From assembly GCA_964596925.1 (NCBI GenBank), contig CAZQWQ010000072.1, positions 576,305-640,304 of the forward strand: a DNA stretch of 64,000 bases. The letters run 5' to 3'. Made by a program: the position numbers and the translations under genes. Under the pieces are notes generated by a model. It saw nothing but the letters and a program-made list of their open reading frames with translations. It did no database searches and had not been told where the DNA came from. Within the stretch, counting starts at the first letter, position 1. Each line of letters opens with the position of its first letter. Source of the DNA: an uncultured Gemmatimonadaceae bacterium. Its GTDB lineage: Bacteria > Gemmatimonadota > Gemmatimonadetes > Gemmatimonadales > GWC2-71-9. Of this stretch, positions 15,935 through 63,249 are shown in pieces.

Positions 15935-15957
15935 TCTGCGCTCCCCCAACTGCCGGG

Positions 15958-16134
15958 TTACATGCCGGCCGGGTGCGGATCTACCGGCAAATGCCGGTGC
16001 ACATGATCCCCAGACTCCGCGACGTCGTCACACCAGCAATAGGCCCAGATCCTCGCCGGCCGCAATGCGCGTTGGCCTGCGCGGAGAATGATGCCCAAGG
16101 GTTCGTCGTCGAGAATTAATGGCAGACTGGTCAT
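15958..16134 (-). CDS. possible 58-aa small protein or gene remnant (below the ORF-track length cutoff)
   Basis: Hand translation gives 'MTSLPLILDDEPLGIILRAGQRALRPARIWAYCWCDDVAESGDHVHRHLPVDPHPAGM*'. It lies in a locally lower-GC island and is followed by the hairpin above. GC3 is only about 70%, lower than neighbouring genes, so coding status is uncertain. Confidence 0.3.
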   Translation of the reverse strand: MTSLPLILDDEPLGIILRAGQRALRPARIWAYCWCDDVAESGDHVHRHLPVDPHPAGM

Positions 16135-16228
16135 ACCACTCGATAGGGCAAGACCGTTGCCACAGCGACCAATCGCGTAATCTAGAGTCGGATAAGAAGT
16201 TACGTATTGCCGTCAGACAGGGGAGTGG

Positions 16229-47567: not shown

Positions 47568-47683
47568 GGTCACGTCCTTTCGCGCGGTTCGTTCATTCAA
47601 CGCTCGCGGAAACTAACACCCGAGATACGCCCCGCTACTGCAGTACGCCGCGGCGTGTCCAGCGGTTTGACAACGCCTGCCTG

Positions 47684-47721
47684 AAAACGCGAGCAACCCG
47701 GCCGATTCGACCGGGCTGCTC
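47684..47721 (-). terminator. intrinsic terminator of the 2178-aa repeat-protein gene
   Basis: GAGCAACCCGG / CCGGGCTGCTC stem (1 mismatch) with loop CCGATTCGA. On the minus strand it is followed by 'GCGTTTTCAG'. It is homologous to the hairpin at 54539-54568. Confidence 0.6.
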
Positions 47722-47761
47722 GATGCTGCCTTGCCCAATGCGCGCGAAACGATCTCGCGCC

Positions 47762-50700
47762 CTATGGCGTGATATTGAACGCGTTGCTGATCACGCCTGT
47801 CAGCACCGGGCCGGTCGAGCTGGCCGAGAGCGTAAAGCCGTTCCCCGGGTTGTTGATGCTCAGGCCGGCCAACGTCGCCACGCCGTTCGTGAACGCCGCA
47901 GGTCCGCCACCGGTCAAGATGGTGCCTGGGCCACCGGCATTCGTGCCGATGATGAGCGTCACGCCGCCGCCGTTGATCGTCGTCACCGTGTTGCCGAACG
48001 CGTCCTGCGCGGCGACCTGCACGGCCGGGGTGATGGTCGCGTTCGCCGTCGTATTCGACGGCTGCACGACGAAGCCGAGCTGTATCGCCGCAGCCGGCGT
48101 GATGGTGAACGTGGCGCTCGTGGTACCGGTCACGGTGGACGTGGCCGACAAGGTGTACCCGGTCGCCGATTTGTTGATGCTCAGATCGGCGAATGTGGCC
48201 ACCCCGCTGGCCGCCGCTTGGGTCAGCGTCCCGGAGAGTACCGCAGTCGGGTTGCCGGTTCCCGAAGTGATCAAGACCGTCACGTTCCCCGCGAAGCCGG
48301 TCGCGACGTTCCCCAGCGCGTCAAACGCTGTGACTCTCACGGCCGGCGTAATCGTGAGCCCGGCCACCCGATCGCTCGGCGCCACGGTGAAGACCAGGTG
48401 ATCCGCCGTTCCACCGTTGATGCTGAATGCCTGGCTGATGTCCGTAGCCAGTGCGCCGGAGGAGGCGGTGAGCCGGTACCCAGTGCCGGATTTGTCGATG
48501 CTCAGGGTGCTGAACGTGGCTGCACCAGCGATGGCGGCCACCGTCGCCGTCCCCGACAGCGTCCCGCCGCTCGGATTCGTCGAGATGACCAGGGCCACGT
48601 TCCCCGTGAACGTGTTGTCGATGTTCCCGAAGTTGTCACGCGCCTGCACCACCACCGCGGGCGTGATTTGTGCGCCCGCCGCCGTGGTCACGGGATCGGT
48701 GCTGAAGTCGAGCCGCGTCGCGGCGCCGCCGTTGATGTTGAACGTGCCGCTCGTCGCGCCCGCAAGGCCGGTCGCCGTGGCGGACAGCCGGTATGACAGG
48801 CCTTTCTTGTCGATGCTCAGGTTCGAGAAGGTCGCCACGCCGCTGACCGCTGCCACCGTGACCGTGCCGGAAAGCGTGGCTCCATTGGTCCCCGTGCCTG
48901 CGGTAATCGATACCGTCACGTTGCCGGTGAAGCCGGTCAGCGTGGTCCCCACGGCGTCCTGCGCGGTCAGCACGACCGCGGGACTGATCGACACTCCGGC
49001 CGTGGCCGTGGTCGGCTGCGTAGTGAAGACGAGCCGGCTCGCAGCCGAAGCGGTGATGTCGAACGTACTGCTCGCTACGACAGCAGCGGCAGGTAGAGAG
49101 GCAAACGCCTCGAGCTGGTACCCGGTCCCCGGTTGATCGATACTGAGATTCGAGAACGTTGCGACCCCGTTGACGGCGAACGGATTCGTGGTTCCCGAGA
49201 GGGCACCGGTGTTGCCGTTCAGAATAATCTGCATGAACACCTGGTCCGTGAAGCTCGTGACGGTGTTACCGAGCAGATCCTTTACGGCCACCTCGACTTG
49301 CGGGGTGATCGCCGCCAGGGCCGTCGCGTTGGACGGTTGCACCTTGAACTCGAGGTGGTCTGCCGCGCCCGGAGTGATGCTGAAGAACCCGCTGCTCGCG
49401 TCCGGCAGCCCGGCGCTCGACGCCGTGAGCTTGTAGTTCGTCCCGGTGACGTCGATGTGCACGCCGGGGAACGAGGCGGTCCCCCCGCCGGCGGCCACCG
49501 TCGTCGTCCCGATGAGCGCCGCGCCCGGCGCTCCGGTGCCGGACTTGACGGCCAGCGTGATGTTGCCACCGAAGCCCGCCACCACGTTGCCCGACGCGTC
49601 GCGCGCCTGTACCTGGATGTCGGGCGCGATTGCGGCGCCCGCCACCGCGGTGCTCGGTTGCACGAAGAAGAACAGCGACACGGCCGTCGGGTCACTCACC
49701 AGGAATGCGCTGCTGGCGGGACTCGTGAGGCCGCCCGCGGCGGATGCCGAGAGGGTGTACGAGCCGGCCAGGGCCAGTTTGATGTTCGGGAAGTTCGCGA
49801 CACCCGAGAGCGCGGCCTGCGTCAGGTCGCTCCCCGTGAAGCCGCCCGGCCCGCTGGCCTTGGCGATCGTGACGTTGGCGGCAAACCCGGTCGCGACGTT
49901 GTCGTTGGCGTCGAGCGCGGTGACCCGCACCGCCGGGTTGATCGCCGCCGCCGTGACCACGGCCGTCGGCTCCTGCGTGAACACCAGGTGCGTCGCGAGG
50001 CCCGGCGTGATGTTGAACGCGCTGCTCGTGGCCGACGCGGCCGCGCCGCCGCTCGCCGCCGCGCGAATGGTGTAGCCCGTGCCCACCTTGTTCACGCTGA
50101 GCGTGGGGAACGTGGCCACTCCGATGATCGCCGTCGCGGTAGCGTTGGACAGGACACCCGCCACGGGGTTCCCAGCGTTGTTCACGAATTCCAACGTCAC
50201 GAGACTCACGAAGGTCGGGTCCACGTTGGCGTGGTCGTCTCGCGCCTCGACCGTCACGGTCGGGAAGATCGACGCCCCGGCCACGGCGTTACTGGGCTGC
50301 TGACTGATCACGAAATTGGTCGCGGCGCCGGCGTTGATCGTGAACGCCGTGCTCGTGGCACCCGTCACGCCACCGGCCGTCGTGGAAGCGGCCAGTGTGT
50401 AGCCCGGGCCCTTCTTGTCGATGCTGAGATTTGCGAACGTGGCGACGCCGGCGGTCGCGTTCGGCACCGTCGTCGTCCCGGACAGCGTGCCGGGTGTCGG
50501 GCTTCCGCCATTCGTCCCGATAGCGATCGTCACGTTGCCCGTGAAGGTCGGATCGGTATTGAACAGCGCGTCCTGGGCGCTCACCACGGTGGTCGGGATG
50601 GTAGCCGGCGGTCCGGCCGTCGCCGCGCTCGGCTGCGTCGTGAAGACGAGCTGGGTCGCGGCCCCGGCCGTGATGTTGAACGCCGCGCTCACGAACGCGC

Positions 50701-53700
50701 CAGCGATCACCGGCGACGTGGCCGACAGGGTATAACCGGGCCCGCTCTTGTTGATGCTGAGGTTGGAGAAGGTCGCCAGCCCGGCCGACGCCGTGATGGT
50801 CGTCGTGCCCAAGAGCGTGCCGGGTGTGGGCGTGCCTCCATTCGTCCCGATCGCGACCGAGATGTCATTGGCGAAGGTCGCGACGGTGTTGCCCAGCCCG
50901 TCTTGCGCCGCCACGATGATCGCGGCGATCGAAGTCCCAGCCGTGGTGCTCCCCGGTTGCACCGTGAACGTCAGCATGGACGCCGCGCCAGCCGTGATGT
51001 CGAACGCCGCGCTCGCGAACGCGCCCGCGAGACCGGCGGTCGTCGCCGATAGTGTATAGCCGCTCCCGGCCTTGTTGATGCTCAGGTTGTTGAAGGACGC
51101 GACCCCACCGACCGCCGTCTGCGTGGTGGAGCCGGACAGGACGCCGCCCGGCCCGGCGTCGTTCCCGATCGCCATGTCCACGTTGGCGGCGAAAGTGGTG
51201 ACCGTATTGCCGAACTGATCCTGGCCCGACACCGCGACGGCGGGGGAGATGAATACCCCGGCGACCGTGTTGACCGGCTGCGCGGTGAACACCAGCTGGT
51301 TGAGCGCGGCGTGGGTGATGGTGAAGGCCGCCGAGTTCGCAACGGTCAGCGTACCCGACGTCGCGAGCAACGTATAGCCTACGGCGCTCCGGTTGATGCT
51401 CAACGTCGAGAACGTCGCCACGCCGTTGACCGCGGGGACCGAAGCCGTGCCGGAGAGAATACCGGTTCCGGGGGGCGGGTTCGTCCCGATCGACACCGCG
51501 ATGTTGGTCGTGTAGGCCGTATCGACGTTGTCGAACGCGTCGAGCGCCGACACGGTGACGGACGGCGCGATCGCCGCGCCCGCGACCGCGCTGTTCGGCT
51601 GGGCGCTGAAGGCGAGATGCGTGGCCGCCGCCGGCGTAATGTTGAACGCGGCGCTCGTGATGCCGGTGAGGCCCCCGGCGTTCGCGTCCAGTGTGTACCC
51701 GTCGCCCGAATTGTCGATGCTGAGGTTGGAGAACGTCGCGACGCCCGCGATCGCGGTGACCGTCGTCGTGCCCGAGAGAACCGCCGCGGGTCCCGTGCTC
51801 GGGTCATTCGAGATGGACACCGTGATCCCACCCGTGAAGACCGGGACGACGTTGTTCGAGGCATCGAGCGCGCTCACCACGACCGCCGGCGCGATGAACA
51901 CGCCCGCTACTTCATTCGTGGGTTGCACCGTGAATACCAGGTGCGTCGCCGTGTTCGCGAAGATGTTGAACGTCGCGCTCGTGGCGCCCGAGAGACCGGT
52001 GGCGTTGGCGGTGAGCGTGTAGCCGTTCCCCACCCGGTCGAGGGTCAGATCGCTAAACAAGGCGACCCCGGCCGCCGCCGGCTTGGCAAGGGTGCCGCCC
52101 AGGGTGCCGGGCGTAGGCGTCCCGGCATTGGTCCCGATCGCCACCGTGATTGTGCCGCTGAAGGTGAGGTCGGTGTTGTTCAAGGCGTCCTGCGCGCTGA
52201 CCTGTACGGCCGGCGTGATCGAGGCCGGCGCGGCGGCGGTGTTCACCGGCTGCACCGTGAAGGCGACCTTGGTCGCCGTCCCGGCGATGATGTTGAACGC
52301 CGCGCTCGTTGCCCCCGTCAAGCCGGTAGCCGAGGCCGTCAGCGTGTACCCGATGCCGCTCTTGTTGATGCTGAGGGTCGAGAACGTGGCCACCCCGGCC
52401 ACTGCGTTGACCGATTGCGTGCCGGACAGGATACCGCCCGGTCCGGCGTTGTTGCCGATCGCGACGGTCACGGAGCCCGTGAATCCGGCGGCCGTGTTTC
52501 CTTTGAAGTCCCGCGCCGTCACCACGACGGCCGGCGCGATCGCCACGCCCGCCGTCCGGTTGGAGGGCTGCGCAGTGAAGACCAGCTGGGTCGCCACGTT
52601 GGGCGTGATGTTGAACGACGCACTCGCGAAGGCCCCGACCAGACCGGTGGCCGTGGCGGACAGCGTGTACCCGGTGCCGACACTATCGATGCTCAGGTCG
52701 CTGAACGACACCACACCGGCGACGGCTGGTTTCGTCAGCGTGCCGGAGAGGGTGGCTCCCGCCTTGCCCGTGCCGCCTGTGATTGCCACCGTGACGGCGT
52801 TGGCGAAGCTGGCCGCGTTGTTGTTGAACGCGTCCCGCGCGGTGACCACGACGGCGGGCGTGACACTCGCCCCGGCCGCGGTGGCGACCGGCTGCACCGT
52901 GAAGACGAGCTGCGTCGCCGTCCCGGCGATGATACTGAAAGTTCCGCTCGCGCGGTTCACGGCGTTGGCGGTGGCCGTCAGGGTATAGCCCGCGCTGGCC
53001 TTGTCGATGCTCAGGTTCGAGAACGTCGCCACGCCGGCGATGGCCGCGACCGTCAGGGTCCCCGACAGTGTGCCGCTCGCGGGGTTCGTCCCGATCGACA
53101 TGTCCACGTTGCCCGTGAAGCCGGTGACCGTGTTGCTCCCCGCATCCAGCGCCGTCACCACGACGGCGGGCGCGATCGCCACCCCGGCGGTGGCGTTGGT
53201 CGGCTGCTGGGTGAACACGAGCTGCGCCAGCGGCCCAATGGCCACGTTGAAGGTCGCGCTCGTGGCCGGTGTCAGCACCCCGGACGTCGCCGAGAGCGTG
53301 TAGCCCGTTCCCGGCTTGTTGATGCTCAGGGCCGGGAAGGTCGCGACGCCGGCCACCGCGTTGATTGGCCCGCCGCCGGTCAGTACGCCGCCTCCGGGAT
53401 TCGCACCGATGGCAATTGTGACGGGGCCGACGAAGGCCGGTGTCGGATTGCTCTGGGCATCCTGCGCGCTTACAACGACGGCAGGCGAGATCGGCGAACC
53501 GGCCGAGCCATTACTGGGCTGAACGGTGAATACGAGCTTGGTGGTAGCGCCGGGGTTGATGTTGAAAAGGCTGGTAGTGGCTGGGACTAGGCTGGGGGCG
53601 GTTGCCGTCAGCGTGTAGCCCGTACCCGTCCGATTGATTGAGAGCGTGGAGAAGCTGGCCGTGCCGGAGGCCCCCGCCACCGCCGTCGTGCCCGACAGCG

Positions 53701-54298
53701 TGGCGCCCGCGGCGCCCGTGCCGGGAGTGATCGCGACCGTCACATTGTTCCCGATCCCTGCCGTGTTGCCGAACTGGTCGAGCACGGTGACGACGACGTT
53801 GGAAATAGTGGCTCCGGCCGTCGCGTTGGTCGGCTGGGTGGTGACGGACAACGCGGTCGCTGCGGCAGGGGCCGTGGTGAACCCCGCGCTCGACCCCCCG
53901 GTGAGGCCGGTCGCGGCCGCTGCCAGGGTGTATCCGCCGCTTCTTGTGATGGTGAGGCTGTTGAAGCTGGCGACGCCGGAGACAGCGGCGACGGTTGTCG
54001 TTCCTACGATGGAACCGCCTGTGGGCCCAGTCCCGACGGACAGCGTGACGTTGTCAGTGAAGCAGCTTTGCACATTACCGGAAGCGTCTTGCACCTGCAC
54101 CGTGACGGAGAACGGCACCCCGGCCGTGAGGCTACTCGGCTGCGCCGTGAAGACGAGCGTGCCCACGCACGGGCCGCCGCTGTCCGAATGGCATGTGGCC
54201 ACGAATAGCGTGAGCGCCATCGCGGCGCTTGCCCGCAGCAGCCGGACGGCGAACGGCGCCCGAAGGGCGCGAAGAGAAACCGACAATTCAGTGCGCAT
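47762..54298 (-). CDS. giant repeat protein (2178 aa): lipoprotein-like signal plus about 20 tandem Ig-like modules
   Basis: ATG start. The N-terminus 'LRALRAPFAVRLLRASAAMALTLFVATC' is followed by a recurring ~100-107-aa unit 'L.FT.QP...AG..I.PAV.V.A.DA.GN....F.G.VT.AI.....LSGT.T..AV.GVATFS.LSI.K.G.GYTL.A'. Thr/Ala/Gly/Val-rich. Confidence 0.9.
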   Translation of the reverse strand: MRTELSVSLRALRAPFAVRLLRASAAMALTLFVATCHSDSGGPCVGTLVFTAQPSSLTAGVPFSVTVQVQDASGNVQSCFTDNVTLSVGTGPTGGSIVGTTTVAAVSGVASFNSLTITRSGGYTLAAAATGLTGGSSAGFTTAPAAATALSVTTQPTNATAGATISNVVVTVLDQFGNTAGIGNNVTVAITPGTGAAGATLSGTTAVAGASGTASFSTLSINRTGTGYTLTATAPSLVPATTSLFNINPGATTKLVFTVQPSNGSAGSPISPAVVVSAQDAQSNPTPAFVGPVTIAIGANPGGGVLTGGGPINAVAGVATFPALSINKPGTGYTLSATSGVLTPATSATFNVAIGPLAQLVFTQQPTNATAGVAIAPAVVVTALDAGSNTVTGFTGNVDMSIGTNPASGTLSGTLTVAAIAGVATFSNLSIDKASAGYTLTATANAVNRASGTFSIIAGTATQLVFTVQPVATAAGASVTPAVVVTARDAFNNNAASFANAVTVAITGGTGKAGATLSGTLTKPAVAGVVSFSDLSIDSVGTGYTLSATATGLVGAFASASFNITPNVATQLVFTAQPSNRTAGVAIAPAVVVTARDFKGNTAAGFTGSVTVAIGNNAGPGGILSGTQSVNAVAGVATFSTLSINKSGIGYTLTASATGLTGATSAAFNIIAGTATKVAFTVQPVNTAAAPASITPAVQVSAQDALNNTDLTFSGTITVAIGTNAGTPTPGTLGGTLAKPAAAGVALFSDLTLDRVGNGYTLTANATGLSGATSATFNIFANTATHLVFTVQPTNEVAGVFIAPAVVVSALDASNNVVPVFTGGITVSISNDPSTGPAAVLSGTTTVTAIAGVATFSNLSIDNSGDGYTLDANAGGLTGITSAAFNITPAAATHLAFSAQPNSAVAGAAIAPSVTVSALDAFDNVDTAYTTNIAVSIGTNPPPGTGILSGTASVPAVNGVATFSTLSINRSAVGYTLLATSGTLTVANSAAFTITHAALNQLVFTAQPVNTVAGVFISPAVAVSGQDQFGNTVTTFAANVDMAIGNDAGPGGVLSGSTTQTAVGGVASFNNLSINKAGSGYTLSATTAGLAGAFASAAFDITAGAASMLTFTVQPGSTTAGTSIAAIIVAAQDGLGNTVATFANDISVAIGTNGGTPTPGTLLGTTTITASAGLATFSNLSINKSGPGYTLSATSPVIAGAFVSAAFNITAGAATQLVFTTQPSAATAGPPATIPTTVVSAQDALFNTDPTFTGNVTIAIGTNGGSPTPGTLSGTTTVPNATAGVATFANLSIDKKGPGYTLAASTTAGGVTGATSTAFTINAGAATNFVISQQPSNAVAGASIFPTVTVEARDDHANVDPTFVSLVTLEFVNNAGNPVAGVLSNATATAIIGVATFPTLSVNKVGTGYTIRAAASGGAAASATSSAFNITPGLATHLVFTQEPTAVVTAAAINPAVRVTALDANDNVATGFAANVTIAKASGPGGFTGSDLTQAALSGVANFPNIKLALAGSYTLSASAAGGLTSPASSAFLVSDPTAVSLFFFVQPSTAVAGAAIAPDIQVQARDASGNVVAGFGGNITLAVKSGTGAPGAALIGTTTVAAGGGTASFPGVHIDVTGTNYKLTASSAGLPDASSGFFSITPGAADHLEFKVQPSNATALAAITPQVEVAVKDLLGNTVTSFTDQVFMQIILNGNTGALSGTTNPFAVNGVATFSNLSIDQPGTGYQLEAFASLPAAAVVASSTFDITASAASRLVFTTQPTTATAGVSISPAVVLTAQDAVGTTLTGFTGNVTVSITAGTGTNGATLSGTVTVAAVSGVATFSNLSIDKKGLSYRLSATATGLAGATSGTFNINGGAATRLDFSTDPVTTAAGAQITPAVVVQARDNFGNIDNTFTGNVALVISTNPSGGTLSGTATVAAIAGAATFSTLSIDKSGTGYRLTASSGALATDISQAFSINGGTADHLVFTVAPSDRVAGLTITPAVRVTAFDALGNVATGFAGNVTVLITSGTGNPTAVLSGTLTQAAASGVATFADLSINKSATGYTLSATSTVTGTTSATFTITPAAAIQLGFVVQPSNTTANATITPAVQVAAQDAFGNTVTTINGGGVTLIIGTNAGGPGTILTGGGPAAFTNGVATLAGLSINNPGNGFTLSASSTGPVLTGVISNAFNITP
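47765..54163 (-). repeat. about 20 tandem coding repeats, unit about 300-320 nt
   Basis: Counted from recurrences of 'L(V/A)FT.QP' in the translation. The plus-strand track also shows a ladder of ~100-aa shadow ORFs, each starting 'M(S/L)MLR..NVATP', at the same period. Confidence 0.85.
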
Positions 54299-54532
54299 AC
54301 CGCTCCCCTGGACGTTGGCCTGACAGTGCCGCGCTGCTGCACAAACTACGCCCCACGGGGTCGCTGTCTAGAGTACGGGGCGGAAGTGTGCGCAAACGCT
54401 GCGAAAGCTGGAGAATCCTGCCCGGGAGTGTTGCTCGATAGCCACGTATGCCCCGGGGTCTGACCGACGAAGGACCTACCATCCGTCGCCATTGTCGCCG
54501 GCTGGCAACAGAGACGCTGCAGTCCGACCTCT

Positions 54533-54568
54533 GAAACGCGACAGCCCGACCGATTGGCCGGGCTGTCG
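54533..54568 (-). terminator. hairpin terminator of the 1641-aa repeat-protein gene
   Basis: CGACAGCCCG / CGGGCTGTCG is a perfect 10-bp stem with loop ACCGATTGGC, 27 nt after the stop. The trailing tract 'CGTTTCAG' is weak. Confidence 0.5.
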
Positions 54569-54594
54569 CTGTCTCGAGCAGGTTCCGCGGTGCG

Positions 54595-57500
54595 TCAGTT
54601 GATGTTGAACAGCGCGCTGGTCGCCGCCGTGACGCTGGCGGCCGAGGCGGTCAAGCGGTAGCCGACCCCAGCGTTGTTGATGCTCAGCGGCGTGAACGTG
54701 GCCACGCCGTTCGCGGCCGCAATCGCGGTCGTTCCCGCGAGCGTGCCTCCACTGGGGTTCGTCCCGATCGCCAGCGTCACGATTCCTGTGAAACCGGTCG
54801 CGACGTTGCCAAGCGCATCGAGCGCGGTGACCCGTATCGGTGGAGCGATCGTCGCGTTCGCCGCCGTGTTGCTCGGCTGCACGGTAAAGAGCAGCTGGGT
54901 CGCGGCACCCCCTGTGATGCTGATGGCGTCGCTCGTGTCCGAGGCGAGGCCGGCTGACGCGACGTCCAGCCGATACCCATTGCCGGACCGATCGATGCTC
55001 AGGTTGTTGAACGTCGCGATCCCGGCGACCGCGGCCACCGTGGTGGTGCCGGAGAGCACGCCGCCGGACGGATTCGTCAGCAGCGCCACGGATACGTTAC
55101 CCGTGAACGTCTTCACCGGGTTGCCCAGCACGTCGCGCACCGTCGCCTGGACGGTGGAGGCCGACACGCCGGGGATCAGCGCCCCCGCCGTCGTCGAAGC
55201 CGGTTGCACGGAGAAGGTGACGCGGGTGGGCGCTCCCGCATTGATGGTAAAGGGAGCGCTCACGGCGCCCGACAAGCCGCTGGCCGTGGCCGACAACCGG
55301 AAGCCGCTGCCGCTGTTGTCGATGTGGAGGCTCGCGAAGTTGGCGACGCCGGCCACCGCGGCGACCGTGGTCGTTCCGGAGAGCGTGGACCCGGCCGTGC
55401 CGGTCCCCGCGGTGATCGTCAACGTCACGTTCCCCGTGAAGCTGGTTTCCGTTTGGCCTGAGGAGTTCCGCGCCGTGACCCGCACCGACGGCGCGATGAT
55501 CGCGCCCGCCGTCGCACTGCTCGGTTGCCGTGTGAAAACGAGCTGAGTGACGAGCGACGCGCTGACGTCGAAGGCCGCACTCGTTGCACCCGTCGGACCG
55601 ACGGCCGTGGCCGTCAGCGTGTACCCGACGCCTGGCTGGTCGATGCTCAGGGTCGAGAAGGATGCGATGCCGGCAACCGCGGGCACCGTGGCCGTACCCG
55701 ACAGGATCCCCCCCGACGGATTGGTTGCGATCGCCACCGTTACGCCGCCCGTGAAGCCCGAGGCGGTATTGCCCTGCGCATCCCGCGCTGTCACTTCGAC
55801 GCGCGGCGCGATCACGATCCCCGCCGTCGCGGCGCTCGGTTGCAGCGTGAACGACAACTGCGTCGCCGTGCCGGCGTGGATCGTAAAGAACGCGCTGGTC
55901 GCTCCGGTGAGCCCGGCTGCCGTCGCGGTCAATTTGTAGCCCACCGCGCTCTTGTCGATGCTCAGATTCGCGAAGGTGGCGACCCCACTCACCGCGTTCA
56001 GGGTGGCCGTGCCGCCCAACACTGCCCCCGGCGCGCCTGTCCCGCCCGTGATCGCGACCGTCACCGGCCCGTTGAAGCTGCTCGCCGTTTGGCCCGATGC
56101 GTCTCGGGCCGTCACGACGACTGCGGGCGACAGGGCCGCGCCCGATGTCCCGTTCTGCGGCTGGCCGGTGAAGAACAGCACCGTCCCGACCGACGTGATG
56201 ACATTGAAGGTCGTACTGGTGGCCCCGGTGAGCCCCGCGGCCGTCGCCGTCAGGGTGTAGCCCGTCCCGACGTTGTTGAGGCTCAGGGCTTGGTACGAGG
56301 CGGTCCCGTTCACCGCGGCCAAGGTACGCGTGCCCGACAGGGTGCTGCCGCCGGGGTTGGAGCCGAGGTTCACGGTGATGTTGCCGTTGAAGGCGATGGC
56401 GTTGTTCCCCAGCGCGTCGCGCGCCGTGACCTTCACCGCGGGTGCGATGTTGGCGTTCGTCGTCACGGTGGCCGGTTGCACGCTGAACACGAGTGTCGTG
56501 GCCACGCCCGGAACGATGTCGAACGATGTGCTGCTCGCGCCCAGCAGGCCTGTGGCTGTGGCGGAGAGCGTGTAGCCGATCCCCGACTTATCGATGGTGA
56601 GGGTCGAGAACGTGGCGACTCCAAGCACCGCGGCGACCGTTTTGGTGCCGCCGAGCGTGCCGGCCGCGGGGTTTGTGGCGATCGCGACCGTCACGTTGCC
56701 GATGAAGCCCTTCGCCGTGTTGCCCAGCGCGTCGCGCGCCGTCAGCTGGATCGCCGGCGCGATCGTCACACCCGCCGCCGCCGTACTCGGCTGTACGGTG
56801 TACACGAGCTGGGTCGCGAGGCCGGCGGTGATGTCGAAGGCGGCGCTCGTGGCGCCGGTCAGGACGCCGGACGCGGCGATCAGTGTGTAGCCCGTGCCGC
56901 TCTTGTCGATGGACAAGTCCGAGAACGTGGCCACCCCCAAAACCGCCGTCACCGAGGTGGTGCCTGAGAGGGTGCCGGTTCCGGGATTCGTCCCGATCGT
57001 GACGGCGATGTTCCCGGTGAAGGTCGGCACGGTGTTCCCCTGCGCGTCCTGTGCCGTCACCTGGATCGCCGGCGCGATCGCCGTCCCCGCCACTTCGCTC
57101 GTCGGTTGGATGGTGAATGCGAGCTGGGTCACCGCTCCGGCGGTGATGTTGAAGCTCGCGCTCGTGGCGCCAGCCACACCGGTGCCCGTCGCCGACAGCT
57201 GGTAGGCGGTGCCGCTCAGGTCGATGCTGAGGGTGGAGAACGTCGCTACGCCAAGCGTGGCCGCGACGGTTTTCGTCCCGGACAACGCGGCCCCGGCCGT
57301 ACCGCTCCCCGCGGTGATCGTCAGCGTCACGTTTGCTGTGAAGGCCGTCACCGTGTTGCCGAGCGCATCGCGCGCCGTCACCTGGATGGCCGGGGCGATG
57401 GTCGCCCCCGCGATGGCGGACGTCGGCTGCACAGTGAACACGAGCCGGTCCGCCTGCGCGGCGGTGATGTCGAAAGCGGAGCTCACGGCGCCGGTCGGAC

Positions 57501-59520
57501 CGGTCGCCGCGGCCGTCAGGGTGTATCCGGCCCCCGCCGTGTTGATACTGAGATTGGTGAAGGCGGCGACACCGGCGACCGCGGCCACCGTCGTCGTGCC
57601 GGACAGGACCCCGCCGGCCGGATTGGTGCCGATCGCGACGAGCACATTGCCCGTGAAGCCGACGGCCGTGTTGCCCTGCGCGTCTCGCGCGGTCACTTCG
57701 ACCTGGGGCGTGATCGCCGCCCCCGCTGTCGCCGTGCTGGGTGGCACCGTGAAGACGAGTACGTTCGCCGCGCCCGCGTTGATCGCGAACGACGCGCTGG
57801 TGTCCGCCGTCAGCCCCCCCGCCGTGGCGGTGAACGTGTAGTCGGTCCCGCTCTTGTCGATGTTCAGGGTCGCGAACGTGGCGACCCCGCCCACGGCGGC
57901 GACGGTCGTCGTGCCGGAGAGGATGGCGCCGCTGGTGCCGGACCCGGCGGTGATCGCGATCGTCACCGCGCCCACAAAGCTGGGGGCGGAGTTGCCTGAA
58001 GCGTCCAGTGCAGCCACCTGGACGGCGGCCATCGTCGCGCCCGCCGTCGCAATCGTCGGCTGCGACGAGAAGACCAGTTGAGTGGCCGTGGAGGGGATGA
58101 TGTTGAATCCCGTGCTCGCCGTCGCCGGCAGGCCGGCTGCTGTGGCCGAGAGTGTGTAGCCGCTCCCCGCGGCATTGATGCTGAGGGTGGAGAACGTGGC
58201 GATGCCCGCTTCCGCGGCGACCGTGGCCGCGCCGGACAACACGCCGCCCGCGGGATTGGTCCCGATCGCCATGATCACATTGCCGTTGAACCCCGTCGCG
58301 ACGTTCCCCAACGCGTCACGTGCTTCCACCTTCACCGCCGGCGCAATCTCCGCCCCTGCCGTGGTCGTCACTGGCTGCACGATGAACACGAGGTCGGTAG
58401 CGATGCTGGGGGCGATGTCGAAGGAGGCGCTCGTGGCGCCCGTGAGGCCTGAGGCCGAGGCCGCCAGCGTGTAGCCGCTCCCCACCTTGTCGATGCTGAG
58501 ATCCGCGAAGGTGGCGACGCCCGCGACCGCGGCCTCCGTCGTCGTTCCGGACAGGACGCCGCCCGCGGGGTTCGCGCCGATCGCGAGCGTGACGTTGCCG
58601 GTGAAGCTCGTGACCGTGTTGCCCACGGCATCCCGCACCGTCACGTCCACCAAGGGAGTGATGGTGCCCCCGGCGGAAGTGGTGGTCGGCTGCACTGTGA
58701 AGGCCAATAGCGCCGCGGCTCCGGTGGTGATGTCGAAGGGGTCGCTGATTGCCGCCGTGAGCGCGCCGGACGAAGCCGTCAGCGTGTATCCCGTGCCGCT
58801 GATCGCGACGCCGCTCCTGTCGATGCTCAGATCGGAGAAGGTCGCGGCACCGGCGACTGCCGTGATCGTCGTGGTGCCCGACAGCGCGGCTCCGCTCGTC
58901 CCGGTTCCGGCGGTGATCACGACCGTCACGTCTCCCGTGAAGCCCGGGACGGGGTTGCCGAGGGCATCCTGCGCCGTGACACGCACGGCCGGGGTGATGG
59001 CGGCCCCGGCCGTTTCTGTCGTGGGCTGAGCGGTGAAGGCCAGTTGCGCCGGGGGTCCGGCATTGACGGTAAAGGACGCGCTGGTGCCCGCCGCGAGCCC
59101 GTTGGTGGTGGCCGTCAACCTGAATCCGGTGCCGCTCTTGTCGATACTCAGGTCATCGAACGTGGCGACCCCGTCCGTCAACGCCAGCGTGGTCGTCCCC
59201 GACAAGGTGGCCCCGCTCGTGCCCGTTCCGGTCGTGATCTCGAGCGTCACGCTCCCGGCAAAGTCGGTGAACGGGTCCCCGTCCTGATCCTGCACCTCGA
59301 CCTCAATCGCGGCGATGGTCGCGCCTGCCTCCGTGGTTCCGGGCGAGACCGAGAACCCCAACTGGGTCGCCTCCGGCGGGCCGATGACCTGGTCGCCACT
59401 ACAGGTGGACAACAGGAAGCACAGCACCGCGAGCCCCCCGGCGCGAGCCAGGCGGGCGGCGGCGGGTGCGCGGAAGACACGCAGGATCGCCGAGGAGTCA
59501 GTGTGCATGGGGTGGCTCAC
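54595..59520 (-). CDS. giant repeat protein (1641 aa): lipoprotein-like signal plus about 15 tandem Ig-like modules (paralog of the downstream gene)
   Basis: GTG start 4 nt after GAAGG. The N-terminus 'LRVFRAPAAARLARAGGLAVLCFLLSTC' is followed by the same repeat unit as 47762..54298. Confidence 0.9.
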   Translation of the reverse strand: MSHPMHTDSSAILRVFRAPAAARLARAGGLAVLCFLLSTCSGDQVIGPPEATQLGFSVSPGTTEAGATIAAIEVEVQDQDGDPFTDFAGSVTLEITTGTGTSGATLSGTTTLALTDGVATFDDLSIDKSGTGFRLTATTNGLAAGTSASFTVNAGPPAQLAFTAQPTTETAGAAITPAVRVTAQDALGNPVPGFTGDVTVVITAGTGTSGAALSGTTTITAVAGAATFSDLSIDRSGVAISGTGYTLTASSGALTAAISDPFDITTGAAALLAFTVQPTTTSAGGTITPLVDVTVRDAVGNTVTSFTGNVTLAIGANPAGGVLSGTTTEAAVAGVATFADLSIDKVGSGYTLAASASGLTGATSASFDIAPSIATDLVFIVQPVTTTAGAEIAPAVKVEARDALGNVATGFNGNVIMAIGTNPAGGVLSGAATVAAEAGIATFSTLSINAAGSGYTLSATAAGLPATASTGFNIIPSTATQLVFSSQPTIATAGATMAAVQVAALDASGNSAPSFVGAVTIAITAGSGTSGAILSGTTTVAAVGGVATFATLNIDKSGTDYTFTATAGGLTADTSASFAINAGAANVLVFTVPPSTATAGAAITPQVEVTARDAQGNTAVGFTGNVLVAIGTNPAGGVLSGTTTVAAVAGVAAFTNLSINTAGAGYTLTAAATGPTGAVSSAFDITAAQADRLVFTVQPTSAIAGATIAPAIQVTARDALGNTVTAFTANVTLTITAGSGTAGAALSGTKTVAATLGVATFSTLSIDLSGTAYQLSATGTGVAGATSASFNITAGAVTQLAFTIQPTSEVAGTAIAPAIQVTAQDAQGNTVPTFTGNIAVTIGTNPGTGTLSGTTSVTAVLGVATFSDLSIDKSGTGYTLIAASGVLTGATSAAFDITAGLATQLVYTVQPSTAAAGVTIAPAIQLTARDALGNTAKGFIGNVTVAIATNPAAGTLGGTKTVAAVLGVATFSTLTIDKSGIGYTLSATATGLLGASSTSFDIVPGVATTLVFSVQPATVTTNANIAPAVKVTARDALGNNAIAFNGNITVNLGSNPGGSTLSGTRTLAAVNGTASYQALSLNNVGTGYTLTATAAGLTGATSTTFNVITSVGTVLFFTGQPQNGTSGAALSPAVVVTARDASGQTASSFNGPVTVAITGGTGAPGAVLGGTATLNAVSGVATFANLSIDKSAVGYKLTATAAGLTGATSAFFTIHAGTATQLSFTLQPSAATAGIVIAPRVEVTARDAQGNTASGFTGGVTVAIATNPSGGILSGTATVPAVAGIASFSTLSIDQPGVGYTLTATAVGPTGATSAAFDVSASLVTQLVFTRQPSSATAGAIIAPSVRVTARNSSGQTETSFTGNVTLTITAGTGTAGSTLSGTTTVAAVAGVANFASLHIDNSGSGFRLSATASGLSGAVSAPFTINAGAPTRVTFSVQPASTTAGALIPGVSASTVQATVRDVLGNPVKTFTGNVSVALLTNPSGGVLSGTTTVAAVAGIATFNNLSIDRSGNGYRLDVASAGLASDTSDAISITGGAATQLLFTVQPSNTAANATIAPPIRVTALDALGNVATGFTGIVTLAIGTNPSGGTLAGTTAIAAANGVATFTPLSINNAGVGYRLTASAASVTAATSALFNIN
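54598..59370 (-). repeat. about 15 tandem coding repeats, unit about 300-320 nt
   Basis: Recurrences of 'L.F(T/S).QP...AG' and 'GVATF..LSI(D/N)' in the translation. A plus-strand shadow-ORF ladder is visible (55547, 55952, 56273, 56594, 56894, 57209 and onward). Confidence 0.85.
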
Positions 59521-59571
59521 GGCACCTTCTGTGCCAGGGGTTGGTGGTCAGGTGCAACGCAATAGAGGAGG

Positions 59572-59601
59572 ATTCTACCGCGAACTGTGGCGTAATGGCA
59601 A
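59572..59601 (-). promoter_or_regulatory. candidate sigma-70-type promoter for the repeat-protein genes
   Basis: Minus strand reads TTGCCA-N18-TAGAAT, about 50 nt upstream of the GTG start. Sequence match only. Confidence 0.35.
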
Positions 59602-59678
59602 CAGCTCGCCGCCTTAACCGACTCCATCGCATTACGGGCAGCTTATGTCAAACTGCGGCACGAATTGGGAATGTGGAA

Positions 59679-59752
59679 TGCGCCAGACGGGATTCGAACC
59701 CATGACCTTCGGCTCCGGAGGCCGACGCTCTATCCAGCTGAGCTACTGGCGC
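59679..59752 (-). tRNA. tRNA-Arg (anticodon CCG)
   Basis: Hand-folded cloverleaf: GCGCCAG/CTGGCGC acceptor, GCTC/GAGC D-stem, TCGGC-CTCCGGA-GCCGA anticodon arm, TTCGAAT T-loop. No encoded CCA. Confidence 0.9.
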
Positions 59753-59813
59753 AGGAAAGCAGTGAAACGAAGGTAACGGCGAACGACCTCACACTCCAGT
59801 CGCCGCACTGGTG

Positions 59814-61169
59814 CTACCCCAACCGCAGACGCGTGAACACTTGCAACGCCTTCGGAGCGGAGCCGTAGGCCGGTCGGAGCTCGGCCGGCAGGAAGTGCAC
59901 GCTCACTGCCATCCCGGCGCCCACGGTTCCCAGGCCCGCAACCCGGAGGTCGAGCGCGAGCCCGATTTCGAGTTTGCCGACGCCGAACAGCGTGCTATGG
60001 CGCAAATCGGTTGGGTCGAACAGCTCGTCCTTCACGACCCGCTCGACGCGGGCAAACACCGTGGATGATCCAACCGTGAGCGTGGACTCGAGCAACAGGG
60101 CGGGCTGCACCCGACTCGGAAACAGGAGCAGCAGCGAATCCACGGGGATGCCGGTTGTGTCGATGAGCGAGAGGTAGTGGTTCAGCACGGCTGGAGGAAA
60201 CGTTCGGATCGCCTCCCGCATGGGAATGACCGTACGCTGTCGTTTTCTCCGGGCCCAGACCGCGGTCGTTTGCCAGTTGCTCGTGCGCCAGCGTCGGTTG
60301 TACGTCACGGATGCCGATAGCATTCCATAGGGAATACGTGGGTGCAGGCGCTCCGGCTGAGCAAGGCCGGCGACGCCGGTTTGCAACACGAGATTTTCAT
60401 TCGCCGCAACGGAGACGCGCACCGCATGGGAATCGAGCCGCGGCTGCTCCACGTTCCAGCGCCGCGAATCCGGTTCGAGACCGTTGAAGCCCGACACCTC
60501 CAACTTCACCTGGCCGCTGGTCAGGCCGACGGTCATGACCCCATAGGTGATGTGGGTCGCGTCCTCGAAGTGGTGCCCGATAGGCGGGGACGGGAAGTCG
60601 CGGCCCGAGGCGCGGTGCAGAAACGGCGTCGGCCCAATGGCCGGGGAGCCGACGGGAGCGAGGTAGACGAACAGTTCGACGTCCGGGTCGATCGCCCGGC
60701 GGTAGGCGACGGCCACCTCCATGAGCACGTCGTGTGGGTGTTGTCGATCGCGCAGCGGAATCAGCCCGTCGGCGCTTTCACCGGTCTGCAGCAGCAGCGG
60801 GTATCCGTGGGGCCCCATCAAGGGTTCGGCGCTGGCCATGACCCGGGCTTCGAACACGCCGCGCCCCAGGCGGCGGGCCGCCGCCGCACCCAGCAGGTCG
60901 GTGACGTAGGTCTGGCGGTCCCCGCGAGGTTCGGGGCTGTTCGCGTAGTTGATCGACACCTGTCCATGCACCATTACCGACCAAGCCCCCATCCGGACGT
61001 GGATGCCCGCGGGGGGCGTGGAGGCAGGCTGCCAACTGGTGCCGGAGGCCGCCCGGGGATCCCAGACGTCTTCGGCGCGGTGGTCGTGCGGCCCGCTGGG
61101 GGTCTGGGCCGTGCCGGTGCGACCCCCCAGGGCGAGGCTGCAGATAATGAATAGACGTGGGGTAATCAC
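59814..61169 (-). CDS. secreted hypothetical protein, probable outer-membrane beta-barrel, with conserved-looking His/Asp motifs
   Basis: GTG start. Signal 'MITPRLFIICSLALGGRTGTAQ'. Motifs 'PHDHRAED', 'RDRQHPHDVLMEV' and 'PIGHHFEDATHITYG' are present, and the C-terminal half has an alternating beta pattern. Confidence 0.7.
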   Translation of the reverse strand: MITPRLFIICSLALGGRTGTAQTPSGPHDHRAEDVWDPRAASGTSWQPASTPPAGIHVRMGAWSVMVHGQVSINYANSPEPRGDRQTYVTDLLGAAAARRLGRGVFEARVMASAEPLMGPHGYPLLLQTGESADGLIPLRDRQHPHDVLMEVAVAYRRAIDPDVELFVYLAPVGSPAIGPTPFLHRASGRDFPSPPIGHHFEDATHITYGVMTVGLTSGQVKLEVSGFNGLEPDSRRWNVEQPRLDSHAVRVSVAANENLVLQTGVAGLAQPERLHPRIPYGMLSASVTYNRRWRTSNWQTTAVWARRKRQRTVIPMREAIRTFPPAVLNHYLSLIDTTGIPVDSLLLLFPSRVQPALLLESTLTVGSSTVFARVERVVKDELFDPTDLRHSTLFGVGKLEIGLALDLRVAGLGTVGAGMAVSVHFLPAELRPAYGSAPKALQVFTRLRLG

Positions 61170-61190: not shown

Positions 61191-61267
<77 letters not shown>

Positions 61268-62009: not shown

Positions 62010-62070
62010 GCGAAATTGTGAACTTTTCGCGCCGTGTTTGGTATCACGGGGCGATCAAATCGAGTGTCAC

Positions 62071-63108
62071 ATGCCCAAGTCTAGGCGCCGCACCAAAACC
62101 GCTTCCGCCAAGGCCAACCCCAAGGCCAAGGCCAGTGCCAAGCGGCCCGGTCGCGTGGTGCCCGCCAAGCCGGTGAAGCCCGCCCCGGTCAAGGCGGCAC
62201 CGCCCGCCGCGGCGGCCAAGGCGAAGCCCGGGCGCAAGCGCGGCCGGCGGCGCGGGCTCATGTCCGGGCTGGGGCACGAGCACGAGCGCGATATCCTCGA
62301 TCAGTACCTGCACGAGGTGAGCAAGACCCCGTTGCTCACTCAGAAGGAAGAGATCGCCCTGGCCCGGAAGGTGCGCGCCGGAGACCAGGAATCGATGCAG
62401 GAACTCGTCAAGCGCAACCTGCGCTTCGTGATCTCTGTCGCCAAGAAGTACCAGAACCGCGGGTTGCCGCTCACCGATCTGATCGGGGAGGGGAACGTCG
62501 GGCTGCTCACGGCCGCCCGGAAGTTCGACCCTGACCAGGGCGTGAAGTTCATCTCCTATGCGGTGTGGTGGATCCGCCAGGCGATTCTCGCCGCCCTGGC
62601 GCGCCAGGGCCGCACGGTCCGCGTGCCGCTGAACCGGACCGCCGACCTGTCGCGCATCGTGCGGACGGCGGAGTATCTGCGGCAGACGCTGCGGCGCGAG
62701 CCCACGCCCGAAGAGATCGCCGACGCGACCAAGTTGTCGCTCGAGGTGGTCCAGTCGCTCGCGGCGCTCAACACCGGCGACGTGCGGCTCGATGCGCCGC
62801 TCGATCCCGACGGGGACCGCTCGTTGATCGAGCGCTTCATCGCCGAGGACTTGCCCGACACGGAAGATCAGGCGATGGACCGCTTCCTGTCGGACGAGAT
62901 CGAGACGGCTCTGAACACGCTGCAGCGCCGTGACGCCAAGGTCCTGCGGCTGTATTTCGGGCTCGACGGCGGGCGGGAGCACACCCTCGAGGAAATCGGC
63001 GGCATGCTCGGGGTGACGCGTGAGCGGGTGCGTCAGCTGCGCGACCGCGCCCTGAAACGGTTGCGGGAAGGGGACGTGGGGAAGGCGCTCGCGAGCTTCG
63101 CCGCGTGA
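62071..63108 (+). CDS. rpoD: RNA polymerase sigma-70 factor, RpoD/SigA family (Bacteroidetes-like short primary-sigma type) with a basic Lys/Ala/Pro-rich N-terminal tail
   Basis: The ATG at 62071 is residue 12 of the track ORF. Regions present: 1.2 'ILDQYLHEVSKTPLLT', 2 'LVKRNLRFVISVAKKYQNRGLPLTDLIGEGNVGLLTAARKFD...FISYAVWWIRQAI', and 4.2 'LEEIGGMLGVTRERVRQLRDRALKRLR'. Confidence 0.85.
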   Translation: MPKSRRRTKTASAKANPKAKASAKRPGRVVPAKPVKPAPVKAAPPAAAAKAKPGRKRGRRRGLMSGLGHEHERDILDQYLHEVSKTPLLTQKEEIALARKVRAGDQESMQELVKRNLRFVISVAKKYQNRGLPLTDLIGEGNVGLLTAARKFDPDQGVKFISYAVWWIRQAILAALARQGRTVRVPLNRTADLSRIVRTAEYLRQTLRREPTPEEIADATKLSLEVVQSLAALNTGDVRLDAPLDPDGDRSLIERFIAEDLPDTEDQAMDRFLSDEIETALNTLQRRDAKVLRLYFGLDGGREHTLEEIGGMLGVTRERVRQLRDRALKRLREGDVGKALASFAA

Positions 63109-63112
63109 AATA

Positions 63113-63213
63113 CTAGACGCACTGACGCAGCAGACGGACAGCGGGTGACAGGTATCGGTGGCCAGGGGTTCCCTGGCCACTCTTGCTGTTCACCTCTGTG
63201 CGCCTGTGCGTCT
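63113..63213. repeat. AGACGC-unit palindromic element, copy C (degenerate; downstream of rpoD)
   Basis: It starts with CTAGACGC-A-CTGACGC-AG-CAGACGG, 5 nt after the rpoD stop, and ends with ...GTGCGC-CTGT-GCGTCT. The centre holds a perfect 10-bp hairpin. Confidence 0.5.
63158..63190 (+). terminator. rpoD terminator hairpin
   Basis: GTGGCCAGGG-gtt-CCCTGGCCAC is a perfect 10-bp stem, followed by 'TCTTGCTGTT'. Confidence 0.55.
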
Positions 63214-63249
63214 TTGCTCCGCTTTCTCCTCAGTACTAGCTTTCAGCCC

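Follow-up and report, generated by a model that had tools for sequence, protein, structure and literature searches.

How a bacterium would deploy two very long proteins made almost entirely of repeated domains, with no exporter encoded beside them, is the question raised by a 64,000-nucleotide stretch of DNA from an uncultured Gemmatimonadaceae bacterium (contig CAZQWQ010000072.1 of assembly GCA_964596925.1; the whole stretch is hereafter called the window). Two adjacent genes on its minus strand, A (54595-59508/59520) and B (47762-54298), each encode a leader followed by immunoglobulin (Ig)-like modules, 15 in A and 20 in B. By a modest balance of probability, they are considered to encode separately transcribed, lipid-anchored surface rods of tandem Ig-like domains that resemble the Lig proteins of Leptospira and InvL of Acinetobacter baumannii. 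For comparison, related loci (labelled L004, L005, L006 and so on) and homologous proteins (P0001 and so on) were examined.

Both genes had been recognised in an earlier reading of the letters alone (the sequence-only reading) as adjacent same-strand open reading frames (ORFs) of 1641 and 2178 codons, and both are present as described apart from the start of A. The figure of 1641 codons is obtained when A is counted from GTG 59520. This codon is CTG in the 94% identical orthologue, in which ATG 59508 is kept, and the A orthologues P0001 and P0003 begin at the Met that corresponds to ATG 59508. Because the GTG is not conserved and the ATG is, the true start of A is probably ATG 59508, giving a protein of 1637 aa. 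Gene B encodes 2178 aa, with a Shine-Dalgarno sequence (GGGGAG) 4 nt ahead of its ATG.

With a hidden Markov model (HMM) of the unit, built from 13 hand-cut units, hmmsearch detected 15 modules in A and 20 in B, 35 altogether, which are contiguous and linker-free, 102-112 residues long (about 105 aa) and matched with per-module i-Evalues from 7e-21 to 3e-48. The array of A (54598-59370, minus strand; aa 51-1641), delimited by hmmsearch, alignment and AlphaFold2 (AF2) models, and that of B (47765-54166, minus strand; aa 45-2178), delimited by hmmsearch and alignment, both run to the end of the protein, so that the C-terminus of each is the end of its last module, directly at the stop codon. Pro10 and Gly66 do not vary in the alignment of all 35 modules, and conservation reaches at least 90% in 17 more columns; identity between modules ranges from 30 to 69% in protein (mean 50%) and from 47 to 71% in DNA. 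Eight residue types (A/T/G/V/S/L/I/N) make up 75-80% of the two proteins, and charged residues are few, a composition that fits an extracytoplasmic location. The sequence-only reading had described about 35 tandem units of 100-107 aa with a common consensus, which the alignment reproduces, and had noted that both proteins stop after the last module without a sorting tail, as the sequences confirm.

The fold of the module was modelled by AF2 with the window's own modules as alignment input. The single-module model is an all-beta sandwich of 8 strands with a predicted local distance difference test (pLDDT) score of 98.1, and the two-module model reaches a pLDDT of 97.6 and a predicted template modelling (pTM) score of 0.85, which argues for a defined geometry between modules. 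In Foldseek searches, the best matches to the single module were C-terminal Ig domains of glycoside hydrolase family 2 (GH2) enzymes, with TM scores of 0.69-0.74, a root-mean-square deviation of 2.5-3.0 A and sequence identity of 14-21%. The tandem model matched FdeC (4e9l, TMq 0.48), InvD, InvE, invasin, titin Z1Z2 and the S-layer proteins SbsC and Sap. Every significant Foldseek match is to an Ig-like domain. The module is an Ig-like beta-sandwich of the E-set type, a fold of two sheets with seven to eight strands in about 100 residues.

Its family membership is another matter, for in Pfam and NCBIfam scans of A and B no Pfam model reached its threshold and NCBIfam gave no match. Invasin_D3 (PF09134) scored 14.1 bits on the whole protein against a cutoff of 33, and Big_1 (PF02369) was not listed; the best Pfam score for A, that of Glyco_hydro2_C5 (PF18565), was 23.1 bits against a cutoff of 32. 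Big_2 (PF02368) gave no match at E <= 1, either on the whole proteins or on any of the 35 modules. When the modules were scanned singly, faint matches to Invasin_D3 were obtained for 10 of the 35 (best E 3e-4) and to Big_1 for 7 (best 9e-4), and Glyco_hydro2_C5 was matched by 4. A profile search of Protein Data Bank (PDB) sequences with the module alignment returned noise only (best E = 0.17), and a Planctomycetota relative of the module passes the Invasin_D3 threshold with 57 bits. The module is thus an Ig-like domain related to the invasin/Big_1/GH2_C5 group that lies outside every curated family by those families' own thresholds. The initial comparison with invasin- or Big_1-type Ig domains is supported as regards the beta-sandwich and a weak affinity to those families.

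The leader of A (59401-59508, minus strand) reads MHTDSSAILRVFRAPAAARLARAGG-LAVLCFLLS-T-C, its Cys codon lying at 59401-59403, and that of B (54191-54298, minus strand) reads MRTELSVSLRALRAPFAVRLLRAS-AAMALTLFVA-T-C, with Cys36 encoded at 54191-54193. The two share a pattern (ILRVFRAPAAARLARAGG...LSTC in A, SLRALRAPFAVRLLRASA...VATC in B) and end in ...ILRVFRAPAAARLARAGGLAVLCFLLSTC and ...SLRALRAPFAVRLLRASAAMALTLFVATC, respectively. In both, a basic n-region and a hydrophobic h-region end at a Cys, as in lipoproteins; in A, the h-region is 12 residues long and is followed by the lipobox-like LSTC. A Tat signal is excluded for either protein, as there is no twin-arginine motif. Across the family, every one of the 155 recognisable leaders has a Cys behind its hydrophobic core, with L, V, I or A at position -3. 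Because this Cys is invariant, lipidation is supported, and A and B would carry a lipid on their N-terminal Cys. The shared leader with its lipobox-like end and Thr at -1, pointed out before from the two sequences, is visible in both, and the lipoprotein interpretation drawn from it has been strengthened by the family-wide conservation of the Cys.

In a canonical lipobox, position -1 is G, A or S (PROSITE PS51257). Of 101 close relatives of A and B, 78 have Thr at this position, and 17 have Ser, Gly or Ala. Distant module proteins carry a canonical lipobox, with Gly at -1 in 26 of 54, and two other putative lipoproteins in the window have the canonical LAAC and VVAC. Thr at -1 appears to be specific to this subfamily. 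A regular-expression scan for lipoproteins in about 350 kb of Gemmatimonadales DNA returned 8 matches, several of them spurious antisense ORFs, too few for a background frequency of Thr at -1, and nothing usable was found in the literature on Thr at this position of lipoboxes. The residues after the Cys are also distinctive. Exactly one of the first six is acidic in 93 of the 101 close-relative leaders, as in A (SGDQVI) and B (HSDSGG); the acidic residue is most often at +4 (56% of leaders), and G-P-P occurs around +8/+9. Between the Cys and module 1 lies a tether of 10-15 residues.

Apart from the leader Cys, B contains only two cysteines, Cys44 in the tether (54167-54169, minus strand) and Cys79 in module 1 (54062-54064, minus strand). 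The pair is kept in all 19 B-type orthologues listed, one Cys 8-9 residues past the lipid Cys and the other in module 1, and over some 2,150 residues 17 of the 19 have no further cysteine, the other two having 2 or 4 extra. A-type proteins lack such a pair. A disulfide between the two residues of B is probable; it would staple the tether to module 1 and would be consistent with an oxidising, extracytoplasmic location.

Considering that a strong hairpin follows A and that distinct conserved elements lie upstream of each gene, A and B appear to be two transcription units with different promoter classes, so that the ratio of A to B rods may be regulated. Upstream of A, 13 nt from its ATG, lies the element TGGCACAGAAGGTGC (59522-59536, minus strand), the sole match to TGGCAC-N5-KTGC in the window. 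Promoters of the sigma-54 type have the consensus TGGCAC-N5-TTGC, with GG at -24 and GC at -12, 12 nt apart, from which TGGCACAGAAGGTGC differs by one mismatch. An element of this kind is the only block conserved in the otherwise diverged regions upstream of A, and it also precedes A orthologues in L004, L006, L007, L028 and L029 as well as paralogues in L008 and L016. The corresponding TGGCAC-N5-(G/C)TGC sites are L004 9795-9809, L006 9973-9987, L007 3214-3228, L008 9934-9948, L016 1672-1686, L028 7973-7987 and L029 7940-7954. Element and start codon are separated by 13 nt in four lineages and by 46-49 nt in two; because this distance varies, a promoter is favoured over a ribosome-binding hairpin, and the 13-nt spacing would yield an essentially leaderless transcript. 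The window also contains the gene of an NtrC-type sigma-54 activator. Gene A thus appears to be controlled by a sigma-54-type, activator-dependent promoter. A promoter scan also returned a sigma-70-like TTGCCA-18-TAGAAT upstream of A (59572-59601, minus strand), of uncertain significance, which is kept in the close relative L004 only and not in L006.

Gene B is preceded, in the 296-nt spacer that separates it from A, by a sigma-70-type promoter-like sequence, TAGACA-N16-TAGTTT (54343-54370, minus strand). The pattern T(A/G)GACA-N16-TAG(C/T)TT has this one match in the window (expected 0.00), and it recurs upstream of B in L004 (15003-15030), L005 (5378-5405), L013, L028 (13357-13384) and L029 (13057-13084). 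Each gene ends in a terminator-like hairpin on the minus strand, that of A at 54529-54578 (-39.8 kcal/mol, z = -7.3; followed by GUUUC) and that of B at 47679-47734 (-33.8 kcal/mol, z = -5.1; followed by GUUUUC). Their common core, AGCCCGGyC(n)AATCGGyCGGG (20-21 nt), occurs at these two sites only in the window (expected 0.00). In other loci, the hairpin type ACAGCCCGG...CCGGGCTGT is found after A in L004 and after B in both L005 and L006, where A has other terminators and only B keeps this type. The two hairpins had been explained by a duplication that included the 3' untranslated region. The similarity is real, whereas its origin by duplication is unproven, because the split between A and B predates the lineages compared and yet L005 and L006 keep the hairpin type at B only. 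The likeness of the 3' ends may stem from duplication, from later conversion or from a preferred terminator stem.

In the mechanism proposed here, the leader of about 36 residues would direct A and B to Sec export; the invariant Cys would receive diacylglycerol, and signal peptidase II would then cut off the leader. The mature proteins would consist of a tether of about 10 residues and 15 or 20 rigidly stacked beta-sandwich modules, held by the lipid anchor in the outer membrane and projecting from the cell surface as fibrils. An Ig module adds about 3.5-4 nm to a rod, as in that of invasin, which would give lengths of about 55-60 nm for A and 70-80 nm for B. By analogy with Lig and InvL, the fibrils might act as adhesins or as a spacing or protective coat. 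The outer membrane could be crossed by either of two routes that have precedents: the Lol pathway followed by a flippase, as for Lig and for Borrelia and Bacteroidota surface lipoproteins, or retention in the inner membrane through Lol avoidance and subsequent type II secretion, the route of InvL and of the lipoprotein pullulanase PulA, in which case the conserved acidic residue could serve as the retention signal. The main argument for a surface location is that the estimated rods well exceed the width of the periplasm; the occurrence of the module with surface-secretion signals in other phyla, the probable disulfide of B and the precedents lend further support. Outer-membrane placement, surface exposure, rod length and an adhesin or coat function are all deduced rather than observed.

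Several observations weigh against this proposal. No secretion-system, exporter or barrel genes lie within the 64-kb window, where no sorting tail was seen either, in agreement with the earlier remark that no export route is evident at the locus. The Thr at -1 of A and B departs from the canonical lipobox [LVI][ASTVI][GAS]C. The rod lengths rest on a literature value for the rise per Ig domain, and both proteins lack a dedicated tip of the kind that would identify an adhesin, for instance a lectin domain. In L004, B is reduced to 5 modules, so the full length is dispensable there. The element TGGCACAGAAGGTGC is at the same time a perfect 5-bp palindrome (GGCAC-N5-GTGCC) and could be an operator or an RNA hairpin. 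Homologues are annotated as 'hypothetical', once as 'hemagglutinin' and once as 'beta strand repeat-containing protein', and look-ups of the clusters of the largest module proteins gave neither names nor taxa. Finally, the Bacteroidota lipoprotein export signal (LES) comprises at least two acidic residues within the six positions after the lipid Cys (PMC5080379, PMC12578637), which the leaders of the A/B family do not have.

The lack of a translocator gene nearby and of the Bacteroidota signal speaks for another reading, in which A and B are lipoproteins kept inside the envelope. Anchored in the inner membrane or on the periplasmic face of the outer one, they would form a periplasmic scaffold along the membrane or the peptidoglycan. 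In E. coli lipoproteins, Asp at +2 is the Lol-avoidance retention signal, and by analogy the single conserved acidic residue of the family (+4 in 56%) could be a signal of this type. Such a scaffold would, however, have to accommodate a linker-free array of 15-20 Ig domains, modelled with confidence (pTM 0.85), that would be two to three times as long as a typical periplasm is wide. In addition, the module is joined to surface-secretion signals in other phyla, and Lig and InvL are located at the surface (PMC7821625, PMC9245377). Retention within the envelope is for these reasons considered unlikely.

Somewhat less probable still is that, after export, A and B leave the cell through proteolysis or on outer-membrane vesicles, to form a loose extracellular matrix or an S-layer-like coat. 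Part of the LigA and InvL protein does enter the medium (PMC7821625, PMC9245377), the Foldseek matches include SbsC and Sap of S-layers, and a conserved core locus beside rpoD, tRNA and Mla genes in several lineages would suit a structural component of the envelope. On the other hand, the proteins show neither a domain for self-assembly or anchoring nor a conserved site of cleavage, and the conservation of the lipobox argues for the importance of the lipid anchor.

A lipid anchor would be absent altogether if Thr at -1 blocked signal peptidase II, so that the leader was cut by signal peptidase I or remained as an uncleaved anchor. The position of Thr outside the canonical lipobox, together with the canonical LAAC and VVAC of the two other putative lipoproteins in the window, speaks for this explanation. 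It is nevertheless very improbable: the Cys is invariant right after the h-region in 155 leaders whose surrounding residues vary, 20-70% of relatives have G, S or A at -1, and there is no Ala-x-Ala site. Lipid-anchored surface rods thus remain the preferred interpretation.

The integrity of the two genes is well documented. The longest stop-free run in the window extends over 2201 codons; in shuffled sequences it averages 400 codons and does not exceed 544. The ratio of nonsynonymous to synonymous substitution rates (dN/dS) is 0.13 against the 94% identical orthologue and 0.27-0.39 against more distant ones; by gene, it is 0.13-0.32 for A against its orthologues and 0.39 for B against L006. 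Independent assemblies of three sequencing runs each yielded the same protein B of 2178 aa, and the array length is therefore no artefact of assembly. On other contigs, 56 to 520 kb long, the orthologues of A contain 15-16 modules and those of B 20-21, and the longest exact repeat across the 11.8-kb region is 24 nt. A and B are functional genes under purifying selection. That the arrays are an assembly artefact or decaying pseudogenes is a negligible prospect, with nothing in its favour except the general risk that repeats carry, and with the shortness of the exact repeats, the low DNA identity between modules (<=71%), the three identical copies of B, the same architecture in long-contig orthologues and dN/dS values well below 1 all against it.

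The arrays are also stable over evolutionary time. For every one of the 15 positions in A, the best match of module k in the 82% identical orthologue is module k, and in 65% identical orthologues with 16 modules it is module k+1 at most positions; identity between the A modules and their positional counterparts amounts to 61-82%. Positional matching is similar for modules 1-11, 15-17 and 19 of B. Because modules match the same positions in orthologues, the arrays are old, positionally stable and not homogenised, which upholds the earlier claim of an old array of diverged copies. Between A and B themselves, which are about 50% identical throughout, no collinearity of modules is detectable. A higher-order repeat or a recent expansion is ruled out by this lack of A-B collinearity and by the positional stability within orthologues.

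Some positions are better conserved than others across orthologues, namely A10 (56188-56502; 77-78%), A11 (55867-56187; 71%) and B19 (48089-48406; 72%), all on the minus strand, the other positions reaching 50-65%. Of all A modules, A10 also departs furthest from the consensus. The conservation hints at position-specific functions of A10, A11 and B19, possibly as binding sites. The loop between strands D and E has two variants that are irregularly interleaved along A and B (e.g. 58717-59052 vs 58402-58716), a long I-T-A-G-T-G-T-S-G-A and a short I-G-T-N-P-A-G-G, and a third occurs in B, G-T-N-G-G-T-P-T-P-G-T. Among orthologues, the number of modules is 15-16 in A and 20-21 in B, with the exception of L004. 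In that locus (15086-16828), where A is 81% identical, B ends after module 5 (531 aa); the DNA beyond it is AT-rich, in contrast to the remainder of the locus, and this suggests that a deletion or an insertion took place. P0168 (1277 aa, with a B leader) had been a candidate for a copy-number variant of 12 modules; it was rejected as a contig-end fragment, 93% identical to residues 1-1281 of B.

In working principle, the closest known systems are LigA/LigB and InvL. LigA and LigB are surface-exposed lipoproteins with 13 and 12 tandem Ig domains that can be encoded by tandem genes, and there is no dedicated exporter gene at their locus (PMC7821625). A and B share the Lig-like architecture of a lipoprotein signal directly before a long array of diverged tandem Ig-like domains, and LigA, like both of them, ends after the last domain. 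The Lig domains are of the Big_2 type (PF02368), about 90 aa long with 3-residue linkers, whereas the A/B modules are about 105 aa long, do not match Big_2 and form longer arrays (15 and 20). LigA's N-terminal half and that of LigB are almost the same through gene conversion, unlike A and B with their even level of divergence. The host ligands of Lig are not applicable to A and B, because these come from a different phylum and a free-living soil organism. InvL of Acinetobacter baumannii is a surface lipoprotein with invasin-like Ig domains and no beta-barrel, exported by a type II secretion system (T2SS) encoded elsewhere (PMC9245377). The proposed form of A and B agrees with it in being a barrel-free lipoprotein with invasin-like Ig domains. 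InvL differs in having 3 Ig domains and a lectin-like tip within 492 aa, whereas A and B lack a tip domain and the window has no T2SS genes.

Intimin, invasin, FdeC and InvD (type Ve secretion) resemble A and B as rod-like Ig stacks, provide the best tandem structural matches and share with them the motif V-T-A-x-D-A-x-G-N as well as the faint Invasin_D3/Big_1 matches. Inverse autotransporters of this kind, however, have an N-terminal 12-stranded beta-barrel, often with LysM, whereas in A and B the leader is followed by module 1 only; no barrel family matched in the Pfam and NCBIfam scans of either protein. Because nothing lies between leader and first module, the principle of anchoring and export differs from that of inverse autotransporters. 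The GH2 beta-galactosidase C-terminal Ig domain (Glyco_hydro2_C5), the best structural match to the single module, is one accessory domain of an enzyme, whereas A and B have no catalytic domain and share 14-21% identity with it. Bacteroidota and Gemmatimonadota are usually placed in the FCB (Fibrobacteres-Chlorobi-Bacteroidetes) group, and LES lipoproteins of Bacteroidota share with A and B a lipid-anchored N-terminus and a conserved acidic position soon after the Cys; they have two or more acidic residues, whereas the A/B family has exactly one in 92% of leaders. Giant adhesins of type I secretion systems (T1SS; SiiE, LapA/BapA type) or type IX systems (T9SS) likewise carry very long Ig-like repeat arrays on the surface, with C-terminal secretion signals, whereas A and B have a lipobox at the start and end at the last module. 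No T9SS, T1SS or sortase C-terminal domain was found in A, B or most of the 120 closest homologues. A and B are thus not members of Big_2, Big_1 or Invasin_D3, not inverse autotransporters, and not LES-type, T9SS or T1SS cargo.

Despite this lack of a curated model, the module is abundant. A profile search of 1.84 billion proteins, represented by 50%-cluster representatives, matched 26,694 representatives at E <= 1e-3 and 6,028 at E <= 1e-30, with up to 45 module copies per protein and protein lengths of up to 6,874 aa. The full-length protein has more than 2,200 strong homologues, and all those with a named source come from Gemmatimonadales or Gemmatimonadetes metagenome-assembled genomes (MAGs). 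The closest species representative is Gemmatimonadales bacterium SMAG_U3966 (DATBLG01; 94% identity); a third paralogue lies elsewhere in the closest MAG, and one MAG has at least 4 genes of the family. Genomes of Chloroflexota, Planctomycetota, Ignavibacteriota, Bacteroidota and Xanthomonadales contain the module as well; there it may be fused to a T9SS-type C-terminal domain (Ignavibacteriota) or to TSP3 repeats and a C-terminal hydrophobic anchor (Planctomycetota). The 120 closest homologues consist mostly of a leader and 15-25 modules alone, with a C-terminal tail of 0 residues in most, and the pure-array lipoprotein form is typical of Gemmatimonadales. A literature search yielded no description of this module family and nothing usable on surface proteins of Gemmatimonadota. 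A and B therefore belong to a very large, uncurated family and are not fundamentally new; the novelty implied by the sequence-only reading was overstated, as tandem-Ig surface lipoproteins without a neighbouring exporter are known from Lig and InvL and the family has tens of thousands of members.

Current understanding is not overturned by this locus, whose architecture has precedents in Lig and InvL. New here are the sigma-54-like and sigma-70-like elements of the two genes, the Cys pair of B and the positional orthology of modules. Gemmatimonadota are abundant in soils, and their cell surface is almost unstudied; A/B-type genes are conserved, evolve under purifying selection and occur several times per genome, and are for these reasons promising candidates for the group's main surface fibrils or adhesins. 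Since no Pfam or NCBIfam model reaches its threshold, a curated model of the ~105-aa module would annotate thousands of giant proteins now called 'hypothetical'. The leader with Thr at -1 and a single acidic residue offers an entry point to how Gram-negative bacteria bring very long lipoproteins to the surface. The value of the pair accordingly lies in an abundant unannotated domain, an unusual conserved leader that is a candidate sorting signal, and the apparent differential sigma-54/sigma-70 control of its two genes. It is further conceivable, though quite doubtful as a whole, that Thr at -1, one acidic residue at about +4 and G-P-P together constitute an unrecognised sorting signal, and that A rods under sigma-54 control and constitutive B rods make up the major surface fibril coat of soil Gemmatimonadales. 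The signature is common to both paralogues and found across Gemmatimonadales genera, and other lipoproteins of the lineage are canonical.

As to its surroundings, the window is ordinary core chromosome, encoding Rho, YceG/MltG, an RpoD-like sigma factor, MlaE, MoxR/DUF58, a Ser/Thr kinase, an NtrC-type regulator with its kinase, a formate-dehydrogenase-like enzyme, aminotransferases and peptidases. On its upstream side, the A transcription unit is bounded by tRNA-Arg(CCG) (59678-59753, minus strand), which closes a conserved cluster of 7 tRNAs. In L004 and L006, too, the genes stand in the order sigma-70 gene, seven tRNAs (Ala-Gly-Met-Val-Arg-Pro-Arg), A and B, and A+B pairs with other flanks occur in L005, L028 and L029, so that the pair is present in at least 5 other lineages.

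Two neighbouring genes had been proposed as partners of A and B, and neither proposal survives. The first, a 451-aa gene (59814-61169, minus strand), lies between tRNA-Pro(CGG) (61192-61267) and tRNA-Arg(CCG), which separates it from A. In L004 and L006, these two tRNAs are 19-27 nt apart and the 451-aa gene is absent; because its flanking tRNAs adjoin in orthologous loci, it is a lineage-specific insertion into the tRNA cluster and not a partner. Its product is secreted and beta-rich, without a Pfam match, and has more than 1,600 unnamed homologues, whose distribution is unrelated to that of the giant genes; one member of the family (P0358) is fused to a cupredoxin-like copper-binding domain. 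The second, a FabA-like gene, lies behind the terminator of B and is not syntenic, the downstream gene of other loci being on the opposite strand or without a recorded FabA Pfam match.

On the plus strand, an RpoD-like sigma gene followed by an MlaE/ABC/MlaD operon (62038-64000) is conserved in L004 and L006 and divergent from the tRNA-A-B block. The giant genes are thus located in a stable core region beside genes of outer-membrane lipid transport, an adjacency that may be a coincidence. In L030, whose contig is presumably from Gemmatimonadales, a cluster of FecR, SusC-like TonB receptor and SusD-like lipoprotein genes (10453-16541) lies 2 kb from an A-type gene. The SusD-like lipoprotein has the lipobox AVAC followed by TDLLNED, an acidic export signal of the Bacteroidota type. 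From this SusC/SusD-like pair, the lineage probably possesses surface-lipoprotein export, and the contrast between A/B and a canonical SusD-like lipoprotein of the same lineage sharpens the question of how lipoproteins reach the surface. Elsewhere in the window, a plus-strand cluster of DUF4350, MoxR AAA_3 ATPase and DUF58/VWA genes (27541-31177) contains ORF calls with long overlaps (27541-28944 vs 28506-29858), and the longest-ORF starts in this cluster are probably placed too far upstream.

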